Shown here: piece after piece, positions 24,836 through 52,220 of the stretch
Layout of the letters: each line of letters starts with the position of its first letter
How positions within the stretch are numbered: the stretch's first letter is position 1
Assembly (NCBI GenBank): GCA_022574205.1
Contig: JACZSL010000002.1
Span: 11,965 to 75,964 of the forward strand
Length of the DNA: 64,000 bases
DNA from: Patescibacteria group bacterium
GTDB lineage: Bacteria; Patescibacteriota; Minisyncoccia; Phycocordibacterales; JACZSL01
Reading direction: 5' to 3'
The notes under the pieces: model-generated
Databases searched by the model: none
Told to the model about the DNA's origin: nothing
The model's input: the letters and a program-made list of their open reading frames with translations, nothing else
Program-made: the position numbers and the translations under genes

Positions 24836-25018
24836 TATCGAAAGTATATAAAAATTCGATGATTTTTCAACCGTGCATGGAAGAATGGGCTTGGTCTCGC
24901 CCCAAGCTTAAAACAAGCTTTTGGAGAGCGTGTTTTTCCTCACGTTCGATCCTTACCTCTAAAACAAATTAAACAAAGTACACGTATCTGAGTCGGTGCG
25001 TGTACTTTGTTCAATGCG

Positions 25019-25090
25019 CCCCCGGGAGGAATCGAACCCCCATCCAAAGCTTAGAAGTCTCTTGTTCTATCCATTAAACTACGGGGGCAA
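25019..25090 (-). tRNA. tRNA-Arg (TCT)
   Basis: Reverse complement GCCCCCGTAGTTTAATGGATAGAACAAGAGACTTCTAAGCTTTGGATGGGGGTTCGATTCCTCCCGGGGGCG; anticodon loop CTTCTAA. Confidence 0.65.
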
Positions 25091-29885: not shown

Positions 29886-30347
29886 ATGGAAGATTCAATC
29901 ACGTGGGAAGCTCCCGAATTTGAATATTTGGAAAAACGCGCCGATTGGTACTGGATTTTAGGTATTGTCGCTGTTTTCGGTGTTATTCTTGCGATACTCC
30001 TTAAAAACTATTTATTTGCGATTTTAGTGCTTATAGGTGCTGGAACGATGACGCTGTATGCAAAAAAGCTACCTGAGACAGTGGAGTTTGCTGTTAGCAA
30101 GCATGGTGTGCAAGTAAATAAAGTACTGTATCCATATGGTTCGCTTGAATCATTTTGGATTAGCGAATTCAATGGTGAAGAGCCGAAGTTACTTTTGACA
30201 TCCAAAAAAATTCTTGCTCTTCAAATTATCATTCCTCTAGCCGATACGCCGCCAGAGGAGGTGCGTAATATGCTTCTACATCATGTTGAGGAGGTCGAGC
30301 AAGGTGAAAGCGTTGTCGAACATCTCTCTCGTTTTGTGAGGTTTTAA
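29886..30347 (+). CDS. hypothetical membrane protein
   Basis: 153-aa ORF with two TM segments. Confidence 0.4.
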   Translation: MEDSITWEAPEFEYLEKRADWYWILGIVAVFGVILAILLKNYLFAILVLIGAGTMTLYAKKLPETVEFAVSKHGVQVNKVLYPYGSLESFWISEFNGEEPKLLLTSKKILALQIIIPLADTPPEEVRNMLLHHVEEVEQGESVVEHLSRFVRF

Positions 30348-30384
30348 AGCGCTTATATTATTGTTGTAGTGGTCTTGCGCTTAT

Positions 30385-30457
30385 GCCCTCATAGTTTAAT
30401 GGATAGAATACATCTTTGCGGAAGATGTGATCGAGGTTCGATTCCTCGTGAGGGCAC
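30385..30457 (+). tRNA. tRNA-Arg (GCG)
   Basis: GCCCTCATAGTTTAATGGATAGAATACATCTTTGCGGAAGATGTGATCGAGGTTCGATTCCTCGTGAGGGCA; anticodon loop TTGCGGA. Confidence 0.65.
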
Positions 30458-30614
30458 AAAATAAGAAACTGGCGCGCCGAAGGTGCGCTAGTTTCTTGTT
30501 TGCCCGGTAGGAATCGAACGACGGAGCCCCGCCACTGGTCCGAGGGGCAAGTCGTGTCCCGCGGCACTTAGTGAACGAGGAGCATGCGACGAAGTGAACT
30601 TAGTGACCGTCAGG

Positions 30615-30634
30615 ACGATTCCTCGTGAGGGCAC
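30615..30634 (+). repeat. Exact 20-bp direct repeat of the tRNA-Arg(GCG) 3' end (att-site-like scar), 177 bp downstream of the tRNA
   Basis: cgattcctcgtgagggcaca occurs at 30438-30457 and 30615-30634. Confidence 0.7.
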
Positions 30635-30637
30635 ATA

Positions 30638-30666
30638 TGAAAAAAGCCAGCTTTGTGCTGGTTTTT
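30638..30666. terminator. Bidirectional intrinsic terminator
   Basis: aaaaaagccagctttgtgctggttttttt. Confidence 0.6.
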
Positions 30667-30852
30667 TTCATGTGTAAACCACAAGGAGCCGTTCACACGG
30701 CTCCTTGTAAAAATAAAACACTACTTTGAGAAAACCCAGCCGAATGTTCGAGTTCTTACCTGAGACTATACCATTATTCTTGCCTGAACAGAGACTTGTT
30801 ATCAACAATGTGTCGTTTAGTGGCTTTTAAAAACAACATTATTTAGTGTCCT

Positions 30853-31116
30853 CTAGTTTTTTGTGTTCACCAAGCGGGCGAGGCGTGACTTTTTTCGTGA
30901 GGCGGTATTTTTCTTTATTAGACCGCGTTTTTTAGCTTTATCGATTGCTTTGTAGGCGTTTTTGAGGAGTTTCTCTGCCTCCTCTTTCTTTCCATCTTTT
31001 GTAAGTTTTAAAATTACCTTAACCTCACGCAGCATGGTGGTTTGTCTGCGCATATTAAAAACCCTCTTTCGTGAAGAGCTTCGATATGCTTTTTTTGCTC
31101 CAACTGTAACTGGCAT
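30853..31116 (-). CDS. rpsT: Ribosomal protein S20
   Basis: MPVTVGAKKAYRSSSRKRVFNMRRQTTMLREVK...KAKKRGLIKKNTASRKKSRLARLV; internal start preferred over the 119-aa ORF. Confidence 0.8.
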   Translation of the reverse strand: MPVTVGAKKAYRSSSRKRVFNMRRQTTMLREVKVILKLTKDGKKEEAEKLLKNAYKAIDKAKKRGLIKKNTASRKKSRLARLVNTKN

Positions 31117-36029: not shown

Positions 36030-36030
36030 G

Positions 36031-36103
36031 TCCGCCCAGCAGGACTCGAACCTGCGACCTTGAAGTTAAAAGCTTCCTGCTCTACCAGCTGAGCTATGGG
36101 CGG
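36031..36103 (-). tRNA. tRNA-Lys (TTT)
   Basis: Reverse complement CCGCCCATAGCTCAGCTGGTAGAGCAGGAAGCTTTTAACTTCAAGGTCGCAGGTTCGAGTCCTGCTGGGCGGA; anticodon loop CTTTTAA; unusual C1:G72. Confidence 0.75.
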
Positions 36104-36285
36104 ATGTATTATTATCGCACGAGCTACCAAGACAGCTATGGGCGGATGTATTATTATCGCACGAGCTACCAAGACAGCTATGGGCGGATGTATTATTATC
36201 GCACGAGCTACCAAGACAGCTATGGGCGGATGTATTGTTCGACTGTTATTTACCAAAACAGCTATGGGCGGTTGCCTTTATATAG
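36094..36285. repeat. 42-bp tandem direct repeat array: 3 identical copies, a diverged 4th and a partial 5th; each copy begins with the first 10 nt of tRNA-Lys
   Basis: Unit ctatgggcggatgtattattatcgcacgagctaccaagacag at 36094, 36136, 36178, 36220 (diverged), 36262 (partial); each unit carries a TAATAAT -10-like box. Confidence 0.85.
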
Positions 36286-46378: not shown

Positions 46379-48580
46379 ATGCGACGTAATAGAAAGCGGG
46401 TTCGTGCTCACATAAATGGCTTTTTTAGGAATATTCTCCTTTTGGGTTTTGTTGGGGGTTTTTTTCTTGCTGGAGCGTTTCTTTTGTGGGCATCTACTTT
46501 AAAAATCCCAGATCTTGACAGTCTCTACCAAAGAAAGGTCGCCCAATCTACTAAAATTTACGACCGCACTGGGGAAATTCTACTTTTTAATGTTCATGAA
46601 GATATACGTAGGACAATTGTTCCTTTAAGTGATATTTCTAGAAACATAGAAAATGCGACTATCGCGATAGAGGATGTAGAGTTTTATGAGCACCGGGGTG
46701 TTAAACCGCAAGCAATTCTTCGTGCGTTATTTGTAAATATTGGTGAGTTGAATTTTAGTCAAGGTGGATCAACGATTACACAGCAAGTGGTAAAAAATTC
46801 GATTTTAACAAAAGAGAAAAAACTTTCCCGTAAACTAAAAGAGTTGATTTTAGCTCTTAAGGTTGAACAGCAGTTAACAAAAGAACAAATTTTAGAGCTA
46901 TATCTAAATGAAACACCTTATGGTGGAAGTGTGTATGGTGTTGAAGAAGCAAGTAAGACCTTTTTTGGGAAATCATCAAGTGATGTAACGCTTGCAGAAG
47001 CTGCGTTTCTTGCGGCACTCCCAAAAGCTCCAACATTTTATTCTCCATACGGAAATAATCGCGACGAATTGGAGGAGCGTAAAAATCTTGTGCTTGAGAG
47101 AATGTTTAATAACGGCTTTATTTCGCGTGGAGAATATGAATTTGCACAAAAAGAGCAGATAGAATTTCAAGGGCAGGCTGTTTTAGGAATAAGAGCTCCA
47201 CATTTTGTTATGTTTGTACGTGAGTATTTATCTAGGACTTATGGCGATCGTGCTATTGAAGAGCGTGGTTTTAGGGTTATAACAACGTTAGATTATGAAC
47301 TACAAGAAAAGGGTGAGGAGATTGTTGCGCGCTTTGTTGAAACAAACGTTGAAAACTTCAACGCGTCGAATGCTGGTCTCGTTGCGGTTGATCCAAAAAC
47401 TGGACAGATTCTAGTAATGGTTGGGTCTAGAAACTATTTTGATGAAGAGATTGATGGAAATTTTAATATAACACTTGCAGAACGTCAGCCAGGATCAGCG
47501 TTTAAGCCATTCGTTTACGCAACAGCGTTATTTAAAGGATACACAACAGAAACTGTAGTGTTTGATACACAAACACAATTCTCAACACTATGTGACTTTG
47601 ATGACTTAGAAAATGAAAATACGGAGTGTTATTCGCCTAGAAATTATGATAATATATTTCGCGGTCCGGTAACTTTTCGTGATGCGCTTGCACAATCCAT
47701 TAATGTACCGTCTGTAAAAGTGTTGTATCTTGCTGGGATACAAGATTCCATTAAAACAGCGAGTAGTATGGGTATTACAACATTAAGTGATGCAGGTCGG
47801 TATGGGCTAACTCTTGTGCTTGGTGGTGGTGAAGTAACTCTTCTTGATATGACAAGTGCATATGGTGTTTTTGCGAATGAAGGGAAAAGAAATCCATATG
47901 TAGGTATTCTTCGTATAGAGGATAGTAATGGTGTTGTTGTTGAAGAATTTTCACACAACCCAATAAAAGTGATATCAGAGGAAGTTGCTCTTCGGATATC
48001 TGATATTCTTTCGGATAATAAAGCGCGTACACCGGCATTTGGTAGTCGATCGGATTTATATTTTCCAGGATACGATGTTGCTGTTAAAACAGGGACAACA
48101 AATGATTCTCGCGACGCATGGATTATTGGATATTCTCCAACAATTGCTGTTGGAGCGTGGGCTGGAAATAACGACAATTCACCTATGGAAAAGAAAGTTG
48201 CTGGGTTTATTATTGCGCCATTGTGGAATGCTTTTATGCAGGAAATATTAGTTAAGGTACCAAACGAGCGTTTTAGATCTGCACCACAGGAATATAATGA
48301 AAATATAAAACCAGTATTACGGGGTGTGTGGGAAGGTGGAGATTTATACTTTATAGATGATAGAACTGGAAGTCCTGCGACAGAAAACACACCTATGGAG
48401 AACATGAAAGAAATTATAGTAAAGAATGTACACTCAATACTCTACTGGGTAGATAAAAATGACCCTCGTGGGGAGAAACCAGATAGCCCAGAAGATAGTT
48501 CACAGTTTAATGCTTGGGAGTATGGGGTTTTTGAGTGGAAAAAAACCAACGGTATTGTTGATGATGTATTACCTTATTAG
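46379..48580 (+). CDS. Class A penicillin-binding protein (glycosyltransferase plus transpeptidase)
   Basis: GT51 motifs IEDVEFYEHRGV and GGSTITQQVVKN; transpeptidase SAFKPFVYATAL, SxN, KTGT. Confidence 0.9.
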   Translation: MRRNRKRVRAHINGFFRNILLLGFVGGFFLAGAFLLWASTLKIPDLDSLYQRKVAQSTKIYDRTGEILLFNVHEDIRRTIVPLSDISRNIENATIAIEDVEFYEHRGVKPQAILRALFVNIGELNFSQGGSTITQQVVKNSILTKEKKLSRKLKELILALKVEQQLTKEQILELYLNETPYGGSVYGVEEASKTFFGKSSSDVTLAEAAFLAALPKAPTFYSPYGNNRDELEERKNLVLERMFNNGFISRGEYEFAQKEQIEFQGQAVLGIRAPHFVMFVREYLSRTYGDRAIEERGFRVITTLDYELQEKGEEIVARFVETNVENFNASNAGLVAVDPKTGQILVMVGSRNYFDEEIDGNFNITLAERQPGSAFKPFVYATALFKGYTTETVVFDTQTQFSTLCDFDDLENENTECYSPRNYDNIFRGPVTFRDALAQSINVPSVKVLYLAGIQDSIKTASSMGITTLSDAGRYGLTLVLGGGEVTLLDMTSAYGVFANEGKRNPYVGILRIEDSNGVVVEEFSHNPIKVISEEVALRISDILSDNKARTPAFGSRSDLYFPGYDVAVKTGTTNDSRDAWIIGYSPTIAVGAWAGNNDNSPMEKKVAGFIIAPLWNAFMQEILVKVPNERFRSAPQEYNENIKPVLRGVWEGGDLYFIDDRTGSPATENTPMENMKEIIVKNVHSILYWVDKNDPRGEKPDSPEDSSQFNAWEYGVFEWKKTNGIVDDVLPY

Positions 48581-48587
48581 TATTGTT

Positions 48588-48857
48588 CTATAAAACATTT
48601 TTAATAAATTCCTTTTTTTTGCTAAGTTTTTTGTTTAATCGTCTGATAATGTCTTGTTTATTTAGATATATTTCGTGTTTTAGTGTTGGATGGGTTTTAA
48701 TATAAAGAATGTTTCTAGTTATTGAAATGTTTTTAGTAGAAATTGCATTGTTGAATATTTCTTTTATAACTTCACAAAAGGCCTCTTTAATAATTTTATC
48801 CCTTGGTGTTGCGAGTGTGTACTTGCGTAAAATATCCTTAATTTTACTTAAGCCCAT
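48588..48857 (-). CDS. DUF721/DciA-like small protein downstream of dnaN
   Basis: Position after dnaA-dnaN; basic C-terminus; size typical of DUF721. Confidence 0.4.
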   Translation of the reverse strand: MGLSKIKDILRKYTLATPRDKIIKEAFCEVIKEIFNNAISTKNISITRNILYIKTHPTLKHEIYLNKQDIIRRLNKKLSKKKEFIKNVL

Positions 48858-48858
48858 A

Positions 48859-49962
48859 TTACTTATTCATTGGCATAACAAGATAAAGGTATGATGGGTC
48901 GCTCACACCTTCCATAACCATTGGTTTCCCAAGGCCACTAAAAGACAGGGAAACACTATCTGATGGGATAATTTGTAGTGCGTCAGTAATATATCGGTGA
49001 TTAAAGTTAATATCTAAATCTTCTCCATCAACAGCTGCTTGGAGTTGTTCTGTTGTCTCTCCTACATCTTGATTACTTGAAGTTAGGGTACATTTTCTTT
49101 GTTTTGATGAAATATGAAAACAAACCTGATTAAACTTATCAGAGAAAATATTTATTTTCTTTAAACTATTAATAAGGTCTTGTTTTAGTGTAATAATTTT
49201 TGTTGTGACTTTTTTAGGAATAATTTGGTGGTAATCTGGGTAAATACCGTCAATTAGCCTTGATGTTATGTATATGTTGTCAGATGAGAAAGATATTTGA
49301 TTTTTAGTAAAAGTTACTATAACTTCTCCAATATTTGAGTGTTCTAGTGCTTTTATTATTTCTGGTATGTTTTTAATAGGTATAATAAGTGGGTTAAAAT
49401 TTGGAACATTTTTATTTATTATAACTTTCTCAGATAGACGGAATGAGTCTGTTGCTGTAAATGTTATTTTTTTGTTTTGTATAGATATATATACACTTGC
49501 AAGTTCTGGTTTAATTGATAAGTTGGATGAACTAAACCATACTGAATTTAGGCCATTAAGAAAATCCTTAATGTCTATTGTAAATGAATTATTACTTTTA
49601 ACTTTAGGTAGTAATGGAAAATCTTCATGTGGTAGTGATTTTATAAGTGTTGAACTTGTGTGTGTTATTATTGAAAGGTTGTCATTTTTACTTAATAATT
49701 TAATTGATACACCATTATATATAGAATTTATAACGTTATAAAAAACTGAACCAGAAACTGCCATTATACCATCTTCTATTATTTTTGCTGGAATATTAAC
49801 TTCAACACCTAAATCAAGATTTGTTGCTTTTAGTTTTAAACTTGATCCTTTTGCCTCTATTAAAATACATCCAAGAACAGGAAGATTAAGATTTTTTCCA
49901 ACAGCCCTTTCAACAATATAAATATTATCAACGAGATTTTCTTTTAAACATTCAACCTTCAT
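48859..49962 (-). CDS. dnaN: DNA polymerase III beta sliding clamp
   Basis: MKVECLKENLVDNIYIVERAVGKNLNLPVLGCILIEA... three-domain clamp. Confidence 0.9.
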   Translation of the reverse strand: MKVECLKENLVDNIYIVERAVGKNLNLPVLGCILIEAKGSSLKLKATNLDLGVEVNIPAKIIEDGIMAVSGSVFYNVINSIYNGVSIKLLSKNDNLSIITHTSSTLIKSLPHEDFPLLPKVKSNNSFTIDIKDFLNGLNSVWFSSSNLSIKPELASVYISIQNKKITFTATDSFRLSEKVIINKNVPNFNPLIIPIKNIPEIIKALEHSNIGEVIVTFTKNQISFSSDNIYITSRLIDGIYPDYHQIIPKKVTTKIITLKQDLINSLKKINIFSDKFNQVCFHISSKQRKCTLTSSNQDVGETTEQLQAAVDGEDLDINFNHRYITDALQIIPSDSVSLSFSGLGKPMVMEGVSDPSYLYLVMPMNK

Positions 49963-50179
49963 ATTCTATATATTATTTATTTTTACTATTAACACTGTGT
50001 ATATGTATAAAACTTAATAAACCCTTATAATAAGCTCTTTTCTAAAACATCTACATAAACAACATGTGATTAACTTATAATAATATGTGGACTATTTTAC
50101 ATTAAATAAACTAAAATACATTTTTACACCAACTTATTAACAAATCATCCACATAATAAAATACGTTTTCCACAAATTG
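49963..50179. promoter_or_regulatory. Candidate oriC segment / DnaA-box cluster in the AT-rich dnaA-dnaN intergenic region
   Basis: tcatccaca (50145-50153) and ttttccaca (50166-50174) are each 8/9 to TTATCCACA; tgtggacta (50087-50095); region about 80% AT. Confidence 0.4.
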
Positions 50180-51538
50180 TTATTTTAGAATCATACGAAT
50201 TTGATTTATTTCCTGTTCAAGAACACTATCAACTTTTAAATTTTTTCTAATTTTTTCACATGAATGTATAACTGTTGTGTGATCTCTACCACCAAGTTTT
50301 TGTCCAATACTCGGATAAGAAATACCAAAATCTTCCCGTAAAATATACATAATAAGCTGACGAGGCTTAACTATTTCTTTCCGTCGAGTTTTCTCATAAA
50401 TATTTTGCTCAGTAATATCATAAAATTCCGCAATTTTCCTCACAACTTCCTTTGCAGATATAAGTTTTTTTGTTCTTGTATTATTTTTTATTAAGCTTTC
50501 AATTTCAGGAAGTGTTAGGGTTGTATCTTGAAGTTGAGATTGACATATAATAGTGTTAAGTGCTCCCTCAAGATCACGAATATTCCCTTGTATTGTTGAA
50601 GCAAGGTAGTCAATAATTTTATCTGAAAGTAATAAATTATTATGTAGTGCTTTAGATTTTAAAATAGCAACACGCGAGTCGTGATCTGGGGCTGGTATAT
50701 CAACAATCATACCAGCGCCAAAACGGCTCTTCAGACGACTTTCAAGATCTGGGATATAGTTTGGGTGCTTATCTGATGTTAATATAATCTGTTTATTATT
50801 ATCATAAAGAGCATTAAATAGATGAAAAAGCTCCTCCTGAGTCTTTTCCTTCTTAGAAAGAAATTGAATATCGTCCATAATAAGAACATCATACTGACGA
50901 TACTTCTCTTTAAACACATTAACTTTAGCCTCCTGAACAGCGTTCACATAATCAACAGTAAATTTCTCACTCGTTAAATAGAATACTTTTCTAGCAGGAT
51001 TTATTTTCTTTAATTGATTACCAACAGCTTGTGCAAGGTGTGTTTTTCCATGACCTGTTGGACTATAAAGAAAAAGAGGATTATATGCAATTCCAGGTTT
51101 TTTAATAACAGCCTGGCTTGCTGCATGAGCCAACTCATTAAATGAACCAACAACAAAATTTTCAAATGTATATCGTGGATTTAAATTATCATTTTTATTG
51201 ATATAAAAATCCTTAAGTGGTAACTCATATGTTGGTGTTGGTTTTTTAGCCACACCACCAACCAACTCCTTTATCACACTATTATCACGATTTTTTACAA
51301 TATTATATTCAAGTCCACGAACCCCGTCAGAAAAACCCCTAAGTGTTTTAAGAATAAATCTATGATATTTTTGCACCATCCAATCCTTAACAAACTGGTT
51401 CGGCACACCAAGGAAAATAACCCCACTCTCCTGTTTAATAATGTACGTATCCTTAAACCATGTGCTGAAATTTGCTCGTGATATATTAAGTTCAATATCA
51501 ACAAGTGTATTTTCCCATAATTGTTTATTACCAAGCAT
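50180..51538 (-). CDS. dnaA: Chromosomal replication initiator DnaA
   Basis: LFLYSPTGHGKTHLAQAVGN (Walker A); C-terminal HTH ...GGRDHTTVIHSCEKI... Confidence 0.95.
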   Translation of the reverse strand: MLGNKQLWENTLVDIELNISRANFSTWFKDTYIIKQESGVIFLGVPNQFVKDWMVQKYHRFILKTLRGFSDGVRGLEYNIVKNRDNSVIKELVGGVAKKPTPTYELPLKDFYINKNDNLNPRYTFENFVVGSFNELAHAASQAVIKKPGIAYNPLFLYSPTGHGKTHLAQAVGNQLKKINPARKVFYLTSEKFTVDYVNAVQEAKVNVFKEKYRQYDVLIMDDIQFLSKKEKTQEELFHLFNALYDNNKQIILTSDKHPNYIPDLESRLKSRFGAGMIVDIPAPDHDSRVAILKSKALHNNLLLSDKIIDYLASTIQGNIRDLEGALNTIICQSQLQDTTLTLPEIESLIKNNTRTKKLISAKEVVRKIAEFYDITEQNIYEKTRRKEIVKPRQLIMYILREDFGISYPSIGQKLGGRDHTTVIHSCEKIRKNLKVDSVLEQEINQIRMILK

Positions 51539-51723
51539 GTGGTGAAATGTAATGCTAATAAGCCGAATAAGATATGTATGATTATCAAATTATACTCTTC
51601 TCGTGGAAAAGTAAATCTTGAAAAACTTGAATAAGTATGTTAATAAAATGTGCATAAGACATAATTGTTACTGTACTAAATAAAAGTAGTCAGGCTTTAA
51701 TTATTCTGTTATAATGTTAAATA
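51539..51723. promoter_or_regulatory. Divergent dnaA/rpmH promoter region with DnaA-box-like sites (second oriC candidate)
   Basis: tgtgcataa (51649-51657) is 8/9 to TGTGGATAA; cgtggaaaa; AT-rich. Confidence 0.35.
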
Positions 51724-51858
51724 ATGTCTATTACATACAAACCAAAGAGGCGAAAAAGGGCTAAAACTCACGGTTTTTTAAGCCGCAAAAAGACACCAGG
51801 TGGACGTAAAGTCCTTAAAAGACGAGCACGAAAAGGAAGAACGCACTTGTCTGTGTAG
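51724..51858 (+). CDS. rpmH: Ribosomal protein L34 (44 aa; below the ORF-track cutoff)
   Basis: Manual translation [44 protein letters not shown]. Confidence 0.9.
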
Positions 51859-51890
51859 AATTATGCCTGTGTATAACACACTCTAGAATT

Positions 51891-52220
51891 GTGAATAAAA
51901 GAAAACCGGTAACTAGAAAAATTTTCGACCGCATTTTAAAAACCGGAAAAACATACCATCAACCACTATTTAGTTTTCACACACTACACACACTTGAAAA
52001 TGTATACAGGATTGTGTGTGTTGTACCAAAGAGCACGGAAAAGTCTGCTGTTGTTAGAAACAAGTTACGACGTCGTTGTTACTATGCGATTTATAAACTA
52101 CTCAACAATAATAAGTATTTTTTAGCAATCCTATTTATTAAATCAGGCGCGAAACGCCTTCCATATAAATTATTTGAGGAAAAGATAGCCGTTCTTCTCA
52201 AAAGATCCGGCATACTGTAA
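51891..52220 (+). CDS. rnpA: RNase P protein component
   Basis: Basic protein ...VVRNKLRRRCYYAIYKLL...; canonical rpmH-rnpA order. Confidence 0.85.
   Translation: MNKRKPVTRKIFDRILKTGKTYHQPLFSFHTLHTLENVYRIVCVVPKSTEKSAVVRNKLRRRCYYAIYKLLNNNKYFLAILFIKSGAKRLPYKLFEEKIAVLLKRSGIL

Follow-up and report, generated by a model that had tools for sequence, protein, structure and literature searches.

A repeat-bounded 177-bp insertion at the 3′ end of a tRNA-Arg(GCG) gene as a candidate miniature cassette of a structured Paceibacteria family

The tRNA-Arg(GCG) gene in the window studied here (the whole 64-kb stretch of DNA that was analyzed) is followed by a small insertion. We assign a rough probability of 0.55 to the reading that it is a non-autonomous miniature cassette with a specificity for the 3′ ends of tRNAs and belongs to a family in Paceibacteria, bacteria of the candidate phyla radiation. 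The unit spans 30439-30615, that is, one 20-bp repeat plus 157 bp, and it entered within the last 20 bp of the tRNA gene. It brings a replacement for the sequence from the T-loop to the 3′ end together with its own hairpin terminator (T1), and the tRNA gene is therefore intact. The original 3′ end and the native terminator (T2) were displaced 177 bp downstream, and in the remainder of the unit a conserved core of ~100 nt comes after an inverted copy of the tRNA 3′ end.

The tRNA gene, located on the forward strand, was identified as in the original prediction, by ARAGORN at 30385-30457 and by the Rfam tRNA model at 30385-30456 with 64.8 bits. Its discriminator A is position 30456 and CCA is not encoded. 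The 20-nt sequence CGATTCCTCGTGAGGGCACA has two exact occurrences in the window, both on the forward strand. The first, attL-like copy (30439-30458) covers T-loop C56, the 3′ strand of the T-stem, the 3′ strand of the acceptor stem, the discriminator A and an additional CA, and the second, attR-like copy (30616-30635) is the displaced original 3′ end. An exact repeat with a start-to-start spacing of 177 had been predicted correctly, with the second copy misplaced by one position (30615-30634); the intervening sequence is 157 nt long (30459-30615). With three mismatches allowed, 0.01 matches are expected by chance, and none of 100 shuffles gave at least two matches. The same structure is present in six near-identical contigs that were assembled independently from different samples, and the architecture recurs in dozens of unrelated assemblies. 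The repeat behind tRNA-Arg(GCG) is real; nothing speaks for a chance match or an assembly artefact, other than that repeats can in general be collapsed or duplicated during metagenome assembly, and we consider the odds of either negligible. The insert also differs from the window in G+C content (58% vs. 40%), a feature absent from the original prediction.

Comparison with a close relative, L230, defines the boundaries of the insertion. When 30439-30615 is deleted from the window, the remaining sequence is identical to the tRNA-terminator junction of L230 at 99 of 103 positions. Because the deletion restores this junction, 30439-30615 is a discrete, repeat-bounded insertion, and the presence/absence polymorphism falls exactly at the repeat boundaries. 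Copy 2 and T2 are collinear with the L230 junction, in which T1 is missing and the T2 sequence sits directly behind the tRNA. A fully unoccupied tRNA-to-rpsT allele was not seen within the clade, L230 having modules further downstream, and no excised circle was seen.

Upstream of the element lies the ORF X153 (29886-30347, forward strand), which encodes a predicted two-helix membrane protein of 153 aa. A homologue adjoins tRNA-Arg(GCG) at 84 of the 120 related loci, which makes the site orthologous across them. X153 was considered as a recombinase or tRNA enzyme and rejected, being a small predicted membrane protein with one weak DUF5673 match and nothing more. A consensus scan places a promoter-like site (TTGTGA-16-TATTAT, 30334-30361, forward strand) upstream of the tRNA, which would drive any read-through transcript of the module. 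Downstream, the predicted terminators are present: T2 (30633-30675), the native bidirectional terminator of the tRNA gene, is an inverted repeat that also scores in the terminator scan, and a second hairpin with a perfect 12-bp stem (30681-30708), conserved in L226, L227, L230, L231 and L232, is probably the terminator of rpsT. The latter gene (30853-31116, reverse strand) is convergent, matches ribosomal protein S20 in Pfam and NCBIfam, and is annotated as an 87-aa gene in L001.

The insert itself can be divided into three parts. T1 (30459-30501), a terminator-like palindrome directly 3′ of the tRNA that arrived with the insertion, is the 12-bp-stem hairpin that had been predicted; its arms agaaactggcgc/gcgctagtttct lie within 30459-30478 and 30482-30501 and contain one G·T. 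An equivalent A-run, hairpin and T-run is found behind the tRNA in nearly all related modules. The inverted copy of the tRNA 3′ end (30501-30519, forward strand), recognized as an inverted repeat and from the fold, starts with TGCCC (30501-30505), the complement of GGGCA, and continues with AGGAATCGAAC (30509-30519), the complement of the T-loop and the 3′ strand of the T-stem, opposite 30436-30446. This second part had been noted earlier as a partial inverted copy of the T-arm; it is not incidental, as it is predicted to form one strand of a helix whose other strand is the downstream repeat, and its sequence varies with the host tRNA. In the minimum-free-energy fold, 30501-30505 pairs with 30629-30633 and 30509-30515 with 30617-30623 of copy 2, giving a predicted minihelix of 5 bp (UGCCC/GGGCA) and 7 bp (AGGAAUC/GAUUCCU) with an internal loop between them, in which the T-loop bases are paired. 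The third part is a type A core (30519-30617, forward strand) of ~100 nt, for which the covariance model R1 predicts a three-way junction with helix P1, carrying a GGA/GA internal loop, and helix P2, carrying a purine-rich apical region. The R1 match of the window core (51.8 bits, E=5e-7 to 5e-9, 30519-30617) is partly by construction, since the window sequence is one of the 12 R1 seeds. Folded alone, the window module exceeds shuffles in stability by a modest margin only (z=-2.3), and its acceptor-like arm is down to 4-5 bp. Complete members (L089, L153, L178, L191) have acceptor/T-like stems of 7+5 bp with the discriminator of their host. Folding and covariation together support a model in which the inverted copy and the displaced direct copy would pair on the tRNA-sense strand, and the resulting helix would resemble the acceptor and T stems of a tRNA and close the three-way-junction core.

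Modules of this kind are found behind approximately one third of the sampled tRNA-Arg(GCG) genes, the other two thirds or so being without one. Specificity for tRNA-Arg(GCG) was rejected, since the same architecture exists in related contigs behind Ser, Lys, Val, Arg(TCT), Arg(CCG) and Gly tRNAs, and in these contigs R1 detects type A cores downstream of tRNA-Ser(TGA), Val(TAC), Arg(TCT) and Lys(TTT). The majority of these cores are framed by an inverted and/or direct copy of the end of their own tRNA, and some are unframed or only partly framed. L153 has three type A cores within 11 kb, L122, L149, L199 and L110 have two each, and the 64-kb window has a single R1 match; R1 gave no match in 64 loci of other bacteria. 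Tandem arrays or decayed copies occur in L140, L159, L187, L230, L208, L183 and L102. Of the 20 loci returned by a core-motif search, only L208 is a true member. The repeat spacing across the family is 87-239 nt at dozens of loci, and the 157 nt of the window fall within the length range of the family.

These observations bear on the reading proposed originally, an empty attL/attR scar of a large integrase-bearing island whose cargo was lost, leaving 157 bp of meaningless remnant. A direct repeat from the T-loop to the 3′ end, a restored tRNA and an insert G+C above that of the genome are what such an island could leave. However, the 157 nt represent one complete, full-length copy in a multi-copy family that is conserved and structured, and their inverted arm and core are under structural constraint. 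The occupied site expected in relatives did not appear either: among ~110 loci, many of them short, there is no second copy of the tRNA end beyond 300 nt. Site-specific integration is borne out as far as the repeat bounds a discrete insertion, but no recombinase or transposase was identified and no integrase is present among the Pfam families listed for the ~64 ORFs of the window, a listing of all but the 17 weakest families; a divergent enzyme may be encoded elsewhere. The island scar is thus largely refuted and we regard it as very improbable; the other option raised at the outset, a tiny non-autonomous element, fits better. The absence of an ORF between the repeats was also confirmed, as only mechanical minus-strand ORFs overlap the region, antisense through the tRNA (30358-30567, 69 aa; 30488-30634, 48 aa), and these are not credible genes. 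A phage or prophage origin was rejected: blastn against phage records matched only an unrelated tRNA, the 22-mer of the tRNA 3′ end retrieved unrelated phage tRNA arrays and one tRNA-Thr in viral contigs, and a 26-mer of the insert had no match in the same check for a viral origin.

The two ends of the modules follow the tRNA that they adjoin. The inverted arm in relatives fits the tRNA next to its module more closely than it fits other tRNAs (p=3e-5 and 5e-8). It complements the 3′ strand exactly, by Watson-Crick pairing, and is not copied from the 5′ strand of that tRNA, reading GATCCCG in L191 and GAGGG in L149-Val where the tRNAs have GGTCCCG and GGGGG. Only the T-loop-derived AATCGAA/CGATT is common to the arms of all sites, and the remainder follows the local tRNA. 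The direct repeat varies from ~13 to ~65 nt and is always the tRNA end, with or without the terminator; in L149-Val and L122-Lys it extends for 57-65 nt, through the terminator. Copy 2 usually starts at CGATT. Such a frame could arise as a side effect when replication switches templates at the terminator palindrome: fold-back copying would yield the inverted copy, a switch back at the T-loop would yield the second direct copy, and the core would be an unrelated structured repeat copied into the junction. The order of the parts (direct copy, palindrome, inverted copy, direct copy), the exact complementarity of the inverted arm to the 3′ strand in L191 and L149-Val, the long repeats of L149-Val and L122-Lys and the recurrent CGATT start are all consistent with this scenario. 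On the other hand, T1 and T2 are unrelated in the window and at most loci, although similar sequences would be expected if one template had been copied again. The inverted arm is split by a conserved hairpin, hp1, and neither the conserved core nor the recurrent architecture would be explained. We consider template switching unlikely.

The core has been maintained over large distances. It is conserved across hosts whose RuvA proteins are ~45% identical, and cores are 88% identical in hosts whose neighboring protein is 29% identical. In 27 aligned cores, paired cells amount to 94.8%, compared to 72% in shuffles and 26-48% when the alignment is slid, 16 of 18 base pairs have compensatory changes on both sides, and the covariation score is 0.628 vs. 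0.222, a value reached by none of 500 shuffles; fitting of the alignment to the model biases these numbers towards structure. With MAFFT and RNAalifold, run independently, compensatory changes were seen in 15 of 18 pairs. One G·U pair on the tRNA strand is kept in 24 of the 27 cores. The tRNA strand folds better than its complement in 26 of 28 modules (p=1.7e-5), and modules are always oriented as the tRNA. Strand asymmetry and the conserved G·U would be compatible with an RNA and also with folded single-stranded DNA. A hidden minus-strand tRNA or tmRNA was rejected: the inverted arm reads GTTCGATTCCT there, has no T-stem pairing, and ARAGORN finds none. The minus strand also folds worse in those 26 of 28 modules, and on it the conserved G·U pairs would become C·A mismatches. 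No Rfam 15 family matches the module in the window, in 30200-30900 at permissive E-values or in ten canonical type A/B loci, where the results were tRNAs and otherwise sub-threshold chance matches to hairpins; the Rfam tRNA model likewise gave no match to the modules of the ten canonical loci. A full-text literature search found no description of such modules. The family of small folded cassettes that they form behind the tRNA genes of Paceibacteria is apparently undescribed.

Deep conservation and covariation fit a vertically inherited RNA gene equally well. Such a gene would encode a tRNA-like small RNA, or structured 3′ trailer, co-transcribed with the tRNA through read-through of the terminator. 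Its arms would be kept identical to the tRNA by local gene conversion, or its function would be to mimic or pair with the 3′ half of the tRNA, and the polymorphism would come from allelic replacement by homologous recombination and from deletion between direct repeats. This possibility overlaps with the cassette reading, the difference being the mobility of the unit, and we hold it to be plausible without being probable. Beyond the conserved core with its covariation and fixed G·U, it is favored by the constant orientation, by an RNase P protein encoded in the window, and by the tRNA-like features of complete members, which have a 7-bp acceptor-like stem, an hp1 arm with a CUGC-type loop and a T-stem-like helix. 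However, a terminator-like hairpin separates tRNA and module in nearly every case, around two thirds of tRNA-Arg(GCG) loci have no module, and tandem arrays and truncated remnants are common.

Comparison among close relatives cuts both ways. L226 is 97.9% identical to the window over the flank from T2 to rpsT, and its site is occupied by two different modules, each with 53-57% identity to the window module; unrelated modules in strains with 98% identical flanks are difficult to reconcile with vertical descent. L141 and L183 have identical tRNAs and different modules, and L123 (type A) and L143 (type B) have the same frame with a different core. The reverse is seen in module 2 of L226/L230 and the module of L227, which share the same core (86% identical over the module) in a different frame, each arm fitting the local tRNA allele. 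Cores of one subfamily also lie behind different tRNAs in different genomes, again contrary to an inherited trailer. In favor of the RNA gene, module 2 of L226 has diverged from the L227 module about as much as their flanks, and L122 and L179 are 100% identical across tRNA and module and ~88% identical beyond, indicating recombination in the region. A selection test between L122 and L179 was uninformative due to this identity of the whole tRNA and module region. The original prediction had opposed a conserved structured trailer to an indel polymorphism, and the relatives give a mixed answer: they share the structured trailer architecture, yet they also display insertion and replacement polymorphism.

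Under the cassette reading, insertion and loss would proceed by recombination between the tRNA-end copy of the cassette and the resident one. This recombination may be of the Campbell type and rely either on a recombinase whose gene lies elsewhere or on recombination at short homologies. Excision would leave the empty junction ...GGTTCGATTCCTCGTGAGGGCACATATGAAAAAAGCC and give a circle with the junction ...GTGACCGTCAGGA joined to CGATTCCTCGTGAGGGCACA and then to AAATAAGAAACTGG. Cores could be exchanged between frames by crossovers in the flanking T-loop-derived sequences AGGAATCGAA ... CGATTCC. The active form would be the folded one, most likely an RNA produced by read-through of T1, and its tRNA-like minihelix could be recognized by RNase P, RNase Z or the CCA-adding enzyme; alternatively, single-stranded DNA could be the active form, as a recombination substrate. 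The match of the arms to each host tRNA is unexpected for a generic mobile element and counts against a cassette, so that the model requires co-adapted frames with core exchange, or local copying, both hypothetical. Furthermore, the unit sits between two terminator-like hairpins with no evident promoter of its own, and thus its expression would hinge on the putative read-through. A promoter belonging to the module was rejected on inspection, a -10-like TATAAT being present in a few T1 tails (L122, L192) and not in general. A more far-reaching interpretation, which we offer tentatively and would not call probable, is that the modules form a new class of element, namely structured cassettes of RNA or single-stranded DNA that can be exchanged and are carried in a "tRNA frame" (the inverted plus the direct copy of the T-arm and acceptor 3′ strand of the host tRNA) that acts both as recombination site and as tRNA-mimicking handle. 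Crossovers would then take place in the universal T-loop sequence, and the folded frame would mimic a tRNA.

The modules share features with several known systems without matching any of them. Williams reportedly described, in 2002, a class of tRNA integration sites with a repeat from the T-loop to the 3′ end. As at tRNA att sites of tyrosine integrases, the direct repeat here begins in the T-loop and reaches the tRNA 3′ end or extends beyond it, the arriving DNA rebuilds the tRNA and moves the native end away, and units accrete in tandem at the same tRNA. In contrast to those sites, the unit measures 177 bp in all and carries neither an integrase nor cargo, it combines a structured, conserved core with an inverted att copy, one core family occurs at many tRNAs with matching arms, and the displaced copy lacks an adjacent complementary T-stem half-site. 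Integron cassettes are small promoter-less units in tandem arrays with folded attC sites, and phages of the CTX type use a folded single-stranded attP in which a hairpin rebuilds a duplex copy of the chromosomal target. Imperfect inverted repeats, conservation of fold rather than sequence and the use of one specific strand are common to attC, CTX attP and the modules, which are also small, promoter-less and in tandem like cassettes with attC. The modules differ in having no association with IntI or Xer, no ORF and a tRNA 3′ end as the site, and a single-stranded DNA intermediate would be purely hypothetical for them.

REP/BIME, ERIC, Correia and Rickettsia palindromic elements are structured intergenic repeats or MITEs of bacteria. 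Like the modules, they are 100-200 nt long, folded, multi-copy and non-coding, often beside terminators and patchy among strains. Unlike in MITEs, the terminal "inverted repeats" of the modules copy the neighboring tRNA instead of being specific to the element, there is no short target-site duplication of fixed length, and the modules are confined to tRNA 3′ ends with a core whose deep covariation is more like that of a functional RNA. Processing modules that are tRNA-like and functional tRNA trailers are represented by mascRNA/MALAT1, the precursor of phage P1/P7 C4 RNA and 3′ETS-leuZ. The resemblance lies in an RNA derived from a tRNA-linked or read-through transcript, putative here, and in an acceptor/T-like minihelix that could recruit RNase P, RNase Z or the CCA-adding enzyme. 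The modules depart from this type in that the T-loop bases are predicted to be paired, the helix copies the neighboring tRNA exactly and Rfam gives no tRNA match. The group I introns described from tRNA genes of Patescibacteria are self-splicing, have an average length of 257 bp and split the anticodon loop at positions 33-37 (PMC13011429). They are comparable as structured RNA insertions at tRNA genes in the same phylum that annotation tools miss. In the present case, however, nothing interrupts the tRNA, the unit follows its 3′ end, and Rfam gives no group I intron match.

The 3′ ends of tRNA genes are classic landing sites of integrative elements. To our knowledge, the units described so far at these ends are kilobases long and encode their own integrase. 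The unit reported here is ~150-200 bp, has no protein gene and a deeply conserved fold, and copies the adjoining tRNA at both ends. If the cassette reading is true, it would reveal a new way for very small genomes to keep rapidly exchangeable non-coding modules, and it would offer a testable case of a recombination site doubling as a tRNA mimic. It would also add an abundant, unannotated structured RNA family to Patescibacteria, in which non-coding RNA is poorly known, and would explain spurious ORF calls and odd "duplicated tRNA ends" in these assemblies. If the more tentative "tRNA frame" interpretation is true, many tRNA 3′ ends in Paceibacteria would be integron-like hypervariable docking sites for small non-coding cassettes, and the strain-level diversity would suggest a role in conflict, e.g., with phages or tRNA-targeting elements or nucleases. 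If the modules are instead vertically inherited RNAs, they would still constitute a new tRNA-linked RNA family whose helices track the neighboring tRNA.

The tRNA-Arg(GCG) gene of the window (30385-30456, + strand) is followed by a duplication of its own 3′ end. The exact 20-mer CGATTCCTCGTGAGGGCACA, which spans T-loop C56 to the discriminator plus CA, occurs at 30439-30458 (copy 1) and again at 30616-30635 (copy 2). With a chance expectation of 0.01 matches, this bears out the tRNA-end repeat of the original prediction, which had placed the second copy one base too low; its other features are present too, namely the hairpin, the inverted copy of the T-arm (30509-30519) and, downstream, terminator hairpins, of which there are two. 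No third copy exists in the 64-kb window, even allowing 3 mismatches. The 157-nt insert has a G+C content of 58%, compared with 40% for the window. Spurious minus-strand ORFs run antisense over the tRNA and this G+C-rich module (30358-30567 and 30488-30634), and in the related locus L227 one such ORF (567-968, − strand) is called as a 133-aa 'gene'; antisense ORFs of this kind probably give rise to false hypothetical proteins in these genomes.

The close relative L230 (S20 92% identical) has the same tRNA save A73G, and immediately after it the sequence found behind copy 2 in the window. With 30439-30615 taken out, window and L230 are identical at 99 of 103 positions. Thus the native tRNA end is copy 2 and its terminator the hairpin behind it (T2), and the 177 bp, one repeat plus the insert, were inserted at the 3′ end of the tRNA and are bounded by the repeat. 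This unit is present in 6/6 near-identical contigs of the window's own strain, with two SNPs within it. Two other modules, of the same core type (A) as that of the window, stand in tandem further downstream in L230 and L226, each ending in a copy of the tRNA end, the distal one with one mismatch.

Module content is replaced at the strain level. From T2 to rpsT, window and L226 are 97.9% identical over 481 nt, whereas their modules are only 53-57% identical. L227 (89% identical in X153, the 153-aa upstream neighbor protein) has a tRNA-Arg(GCG) allele 76% identical to that of the window; although its only module shares 86% identity with module 2 of L226/L230, both arms of this module fit the tRNA of L227 itself. 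L123 and L143 have the tRNA, the first terminator (T1), the acceptor-like arm and hairpin hp1 in common, with a type A core in the former and a type B core in the latter, while L141 and L183 have identical tRNAs and differing downstream content. Arrays of tandem units, truncated repeats and decayed remnants occur frequently (L140, L159, L187, L090, L127, L145, L153, L188, L183, L102, L208). The L227 tRNA itself differs from that of the window at 17/72 positions, and its acceptor, anticodon and T stems show compensatory changes; as the flanks are 82-85% identical, either divergence is faster in the tRNA stems than around them or a replacement of the allele has taken place. L122 and L179 are 100% identical over ~630 nt (X153 end, tRNA, module and T2) and ~88% identical downstream, a sharp mosaic boundary that implies recent recombination covering the module region.

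On the tRNA strand, the parts of a module follow a common order. After the tRNA come a few bases, often CAAA, and the hairpin T1, which is palindromic and terminator-like. Next is a Watson-Crick complement to the acceptor 3′ strand, in many modules hp1 with its CUGC-type loop, and then a complement to the 3′ strand of the T-stem and to the T-loop (..GGAATCGAA). A variable inner domain follows, then the direct repeat, composed of (C)GATT, the T-stem and acceptor 3′ strands and the discriminator, and usually T2. Pairing between the inverted arm and the direct repeat yields a helix that has the sequence of the tRNA acceptor and T stems and closes the inner domain. The arms follow the host tRNA, the inverted arm matching its own tRNA better than other tRNAs (p=3e-5 and 5e-8). 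There are at least two types of inner domain: type A consists of NNCGGAGC, a hairpin, GCGAG-N'N', GGGGTCG(C/A)GA, a hairpin with a purine-rich loop and TCGTGACC; type B of a long hairpin, (G)UACUG and a GUA-looped stem of 5 bp. The module of the window is of type A, though divergent, and its acceptor-like arm is reduced to TGCCC; folded alone, the module pairs 30501-30505 with 30629-30633 and 30509-30515 with 30617-30623, enclosing a three-way junction. Apical loops of the inner domain are purine-rich in many modules (e.g. window 30573-30597, L122, L153, L087), often with GCGAAGC-like or GAGCGACGGCGAG-like strings, a loop motif common to different core types; that of the window, GAACGAGGAGCATGCGACGAAGTGA, contains the Shine-Dalgarno-like GAGGAG.

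A consensus fold was obtained from a 12-sequence alignment of type A cores, in which 15/18 pairs show compensatory changes, and the covariance model R1 was built on it. R1 scores window 30519-30617 at 51.8 bits, the window sequence having itself been in the seed. Across 27 model-aligned cores, paired cells reach 94.8%, against 72% when shuffled and 26-48% with partners slid; both-sided changes occur at 16/18 pairs, and the covariation score is 0.628 versus 0.222 for shuffled alignments, with 0 of 500 shuffles reaching it. One pair is G·U in 24/27 cores. None of the Rfam 15 families matches the window insert or canonical members. The tRNA strand folds more stably than its complement in 26/28 modules (mean -5.5 kcal/mol, p=1.7e-5), which excludes an opposite-strand gene; the predicted bias would fit RNA and folded single-stranded DNA alike.

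The tRNA-Arg(GCG) locus is orthologous across these contigs: in an unbiased pattern scan of metagenomes for this tRNA type, an X153 homologue adjoins it in 84 of 120 loci, often with rpsT and ruvA too. X153 (29886-30347) is a predicted two-helix membrane protein with a weak DUF5673 match; between its gene and rpsT the tRNA is found in both orientations, with or without a module, which implies that it was inverted in place in some lineages. A strict test (12 nt, ≤1 mismatch) finds an own-3′-end repeat downstream in 19/120 loci; one (L107) is a genuine second tRNA, and the others lie 87-239 nt downstream. With looser tests and the covariance model, about a third of ~110 loci are occupied. Even in the distant relatives L016 and L019 (RuvA ~45-47% identical), tRNA-Arg(GCG) precedes a copy of its own, differing 3′ end. 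L137 and L165 have a second, tRNA-like sequence (Ser-like, with a long variable arm) within ~10 nt downstream of tRNA-Arg(GCG), and no module there.

Specificity for tRNA-Arg(GCG) was rejected, as cores and end repeats stand behind several other tRNAs. R1 matches lie behind tRNA-Ser(TGA), tRNA-Val(TAC), tRNA-Arg(TCT) and tRNA-Lys(TTT) in the same contigs, and most type A cores at such sites are framed by inverted and/or direct copies of the local tRNA end; some have the direct copy only and some are unframed. In a survey of all 257 tRNAs of the fetched loci, own-end repeats follow Arg(GCG) in 19/109 cases, Ser(TGA) in 4/35, Ser(GCT) in 3/18 and Lys(TTT) in 2/17, with single cases at Arg(TCT), Arg(CCG), Val(TAC) and Gly(GCC); at L149-Val and L122-Lys the direct repeat is 57-65 nt long and runs through the terminator. 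Core subfamilies cross the bounds of host and tRNA type: short cores with 88% identity lie behind tRNA-Arg(TCT) in L110 and at a tRNA-less site in L153, hosts whose X153 proteins are 29% identical. R1 has 0 matches in 64 loci from other bacteria. In L208 (2900-3319; contig IMGVR_UViG_3300033463_005745, viral by database label only), a tRNA-Ser-like 3′ end frames type A modules in tandem; ARAGORN calls no tRNA gene in the part of the contig that was retrieved.

The unit thus belongs to a conserved, folded, multi-site family, and this essentially excludes the empty scar of a deleted tRNA-integrated island favored by the original prediction; among the ~110 related loci, the search for an occupied integrase-island site found no distant tRNA-end repeat. 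The main alternative to a cassette is a tRNA-like RNA, inherited vertically, with arms homogenized by local gene conversion; it accounts for conservation as well as a cassette does and is weaker on turnover, multi-tRNA distribution and arrays. The two are compatible with one another.

As a cassette, and by the logic of tRNA att sites, the unit would integrate and be lost by recombination between its own tRNA-end copy and the resident one, and cores would swap frames via crossovers in the flanking T-loop-derived sequences; the L226/L227 breakpoints are located at AGGAATCGAA and CGATTCCT. The active form would be the folded one, a tRNA-like helix with a three-way junction. We lean towards an RNA made by T1 read-through, a model with which the RNA-typical fixed G·U, tandem G·A internal loop and purine-rich loops are consistent; the host genome encodes the RNase P protein. 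The weak points of the cassette reading are the lack of a recombinase among the Pfam families listed for ~64 window ORFs, the lack of an excised circle or fully empty allele among related loci and the terminator-like hairpins on both sides, and a route matching the arms to each tRNA would still be required.

Elsewhere in the window, downstream of tRNA-Arg(TCT) (25016-25088, − strand), at ~24870-24990, a palindromic hairpin is followed by GGTAAGGATCGAAC, a near-complement of that tRNA's T-loop and T-stem; this trailer has neither a direct repeat nor an R1 match and looks like a degenerate module or one of a different type. At and upstream of tRNA-Lys(TTT) (36030-36103, − strand), within ~36092-36163, a 30-nt segment made up of 18 nt of the 5′ leader and the tRNA's first 12 nt (cgtgcgataataatacatCCGCCCATAGCT) recurs as a direct copy 42 nt upstream, a 5′-end counterpart of the tRNA-Arg(GCG) duplication.

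The host is a candidate phyla radiation bacterium with small, divergent housekeeping genes. The window encodes rpsT, ruvA, murE, ruvX, pilM, polA, ruvB, ruvC and argS (arginyl-tRNA synthetase) and includes the replication-origin region, as indicated by dnaA, dnaN, rnpA and yidC. An identical RuvA is encoded on contig JADFKC010000007.1 (GCA_022565145.1) and seven metagenome contigs, while that of the nearest species-representative genomes (labelled Candidatus Paceibacterota) is ≤50% identical. TraG-like P-loop and PrgI-family proteins are also encoded, as is a cytidine/dCMP-deaminase-domain protein, although the CGN tRNA-Arg there has G34, not A34. At 48000-52000 the G+C content falls to 31%, versus ~40% elsewhere; this stretch, in which two long ORFs lie on the minus strand (48859-49962 and 50180-51538), may be of foreign origin or surface-related.

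The unit resembles tRNA att-site insertions in its boundaries and in the start of its repeat within the T-loop, reportedly the starting point in one known class of such sites (Williams 2002), but has no integrase. It shares size, arrays and conservation of fold rather than sequence with integron cassettes and small structured repeats, but lacks element-specific terminal repeats. Its closing helix resembles that of tRNA-like processing modules, without a T-loop or a tRNA-model match. The unit is also distinct from the group I introns that were recently reported in tRNAs of Patescibacteria (PMC13011429). A full-text literature search found no description of such modules, and there is a substantial chance that the family is a new class of element.
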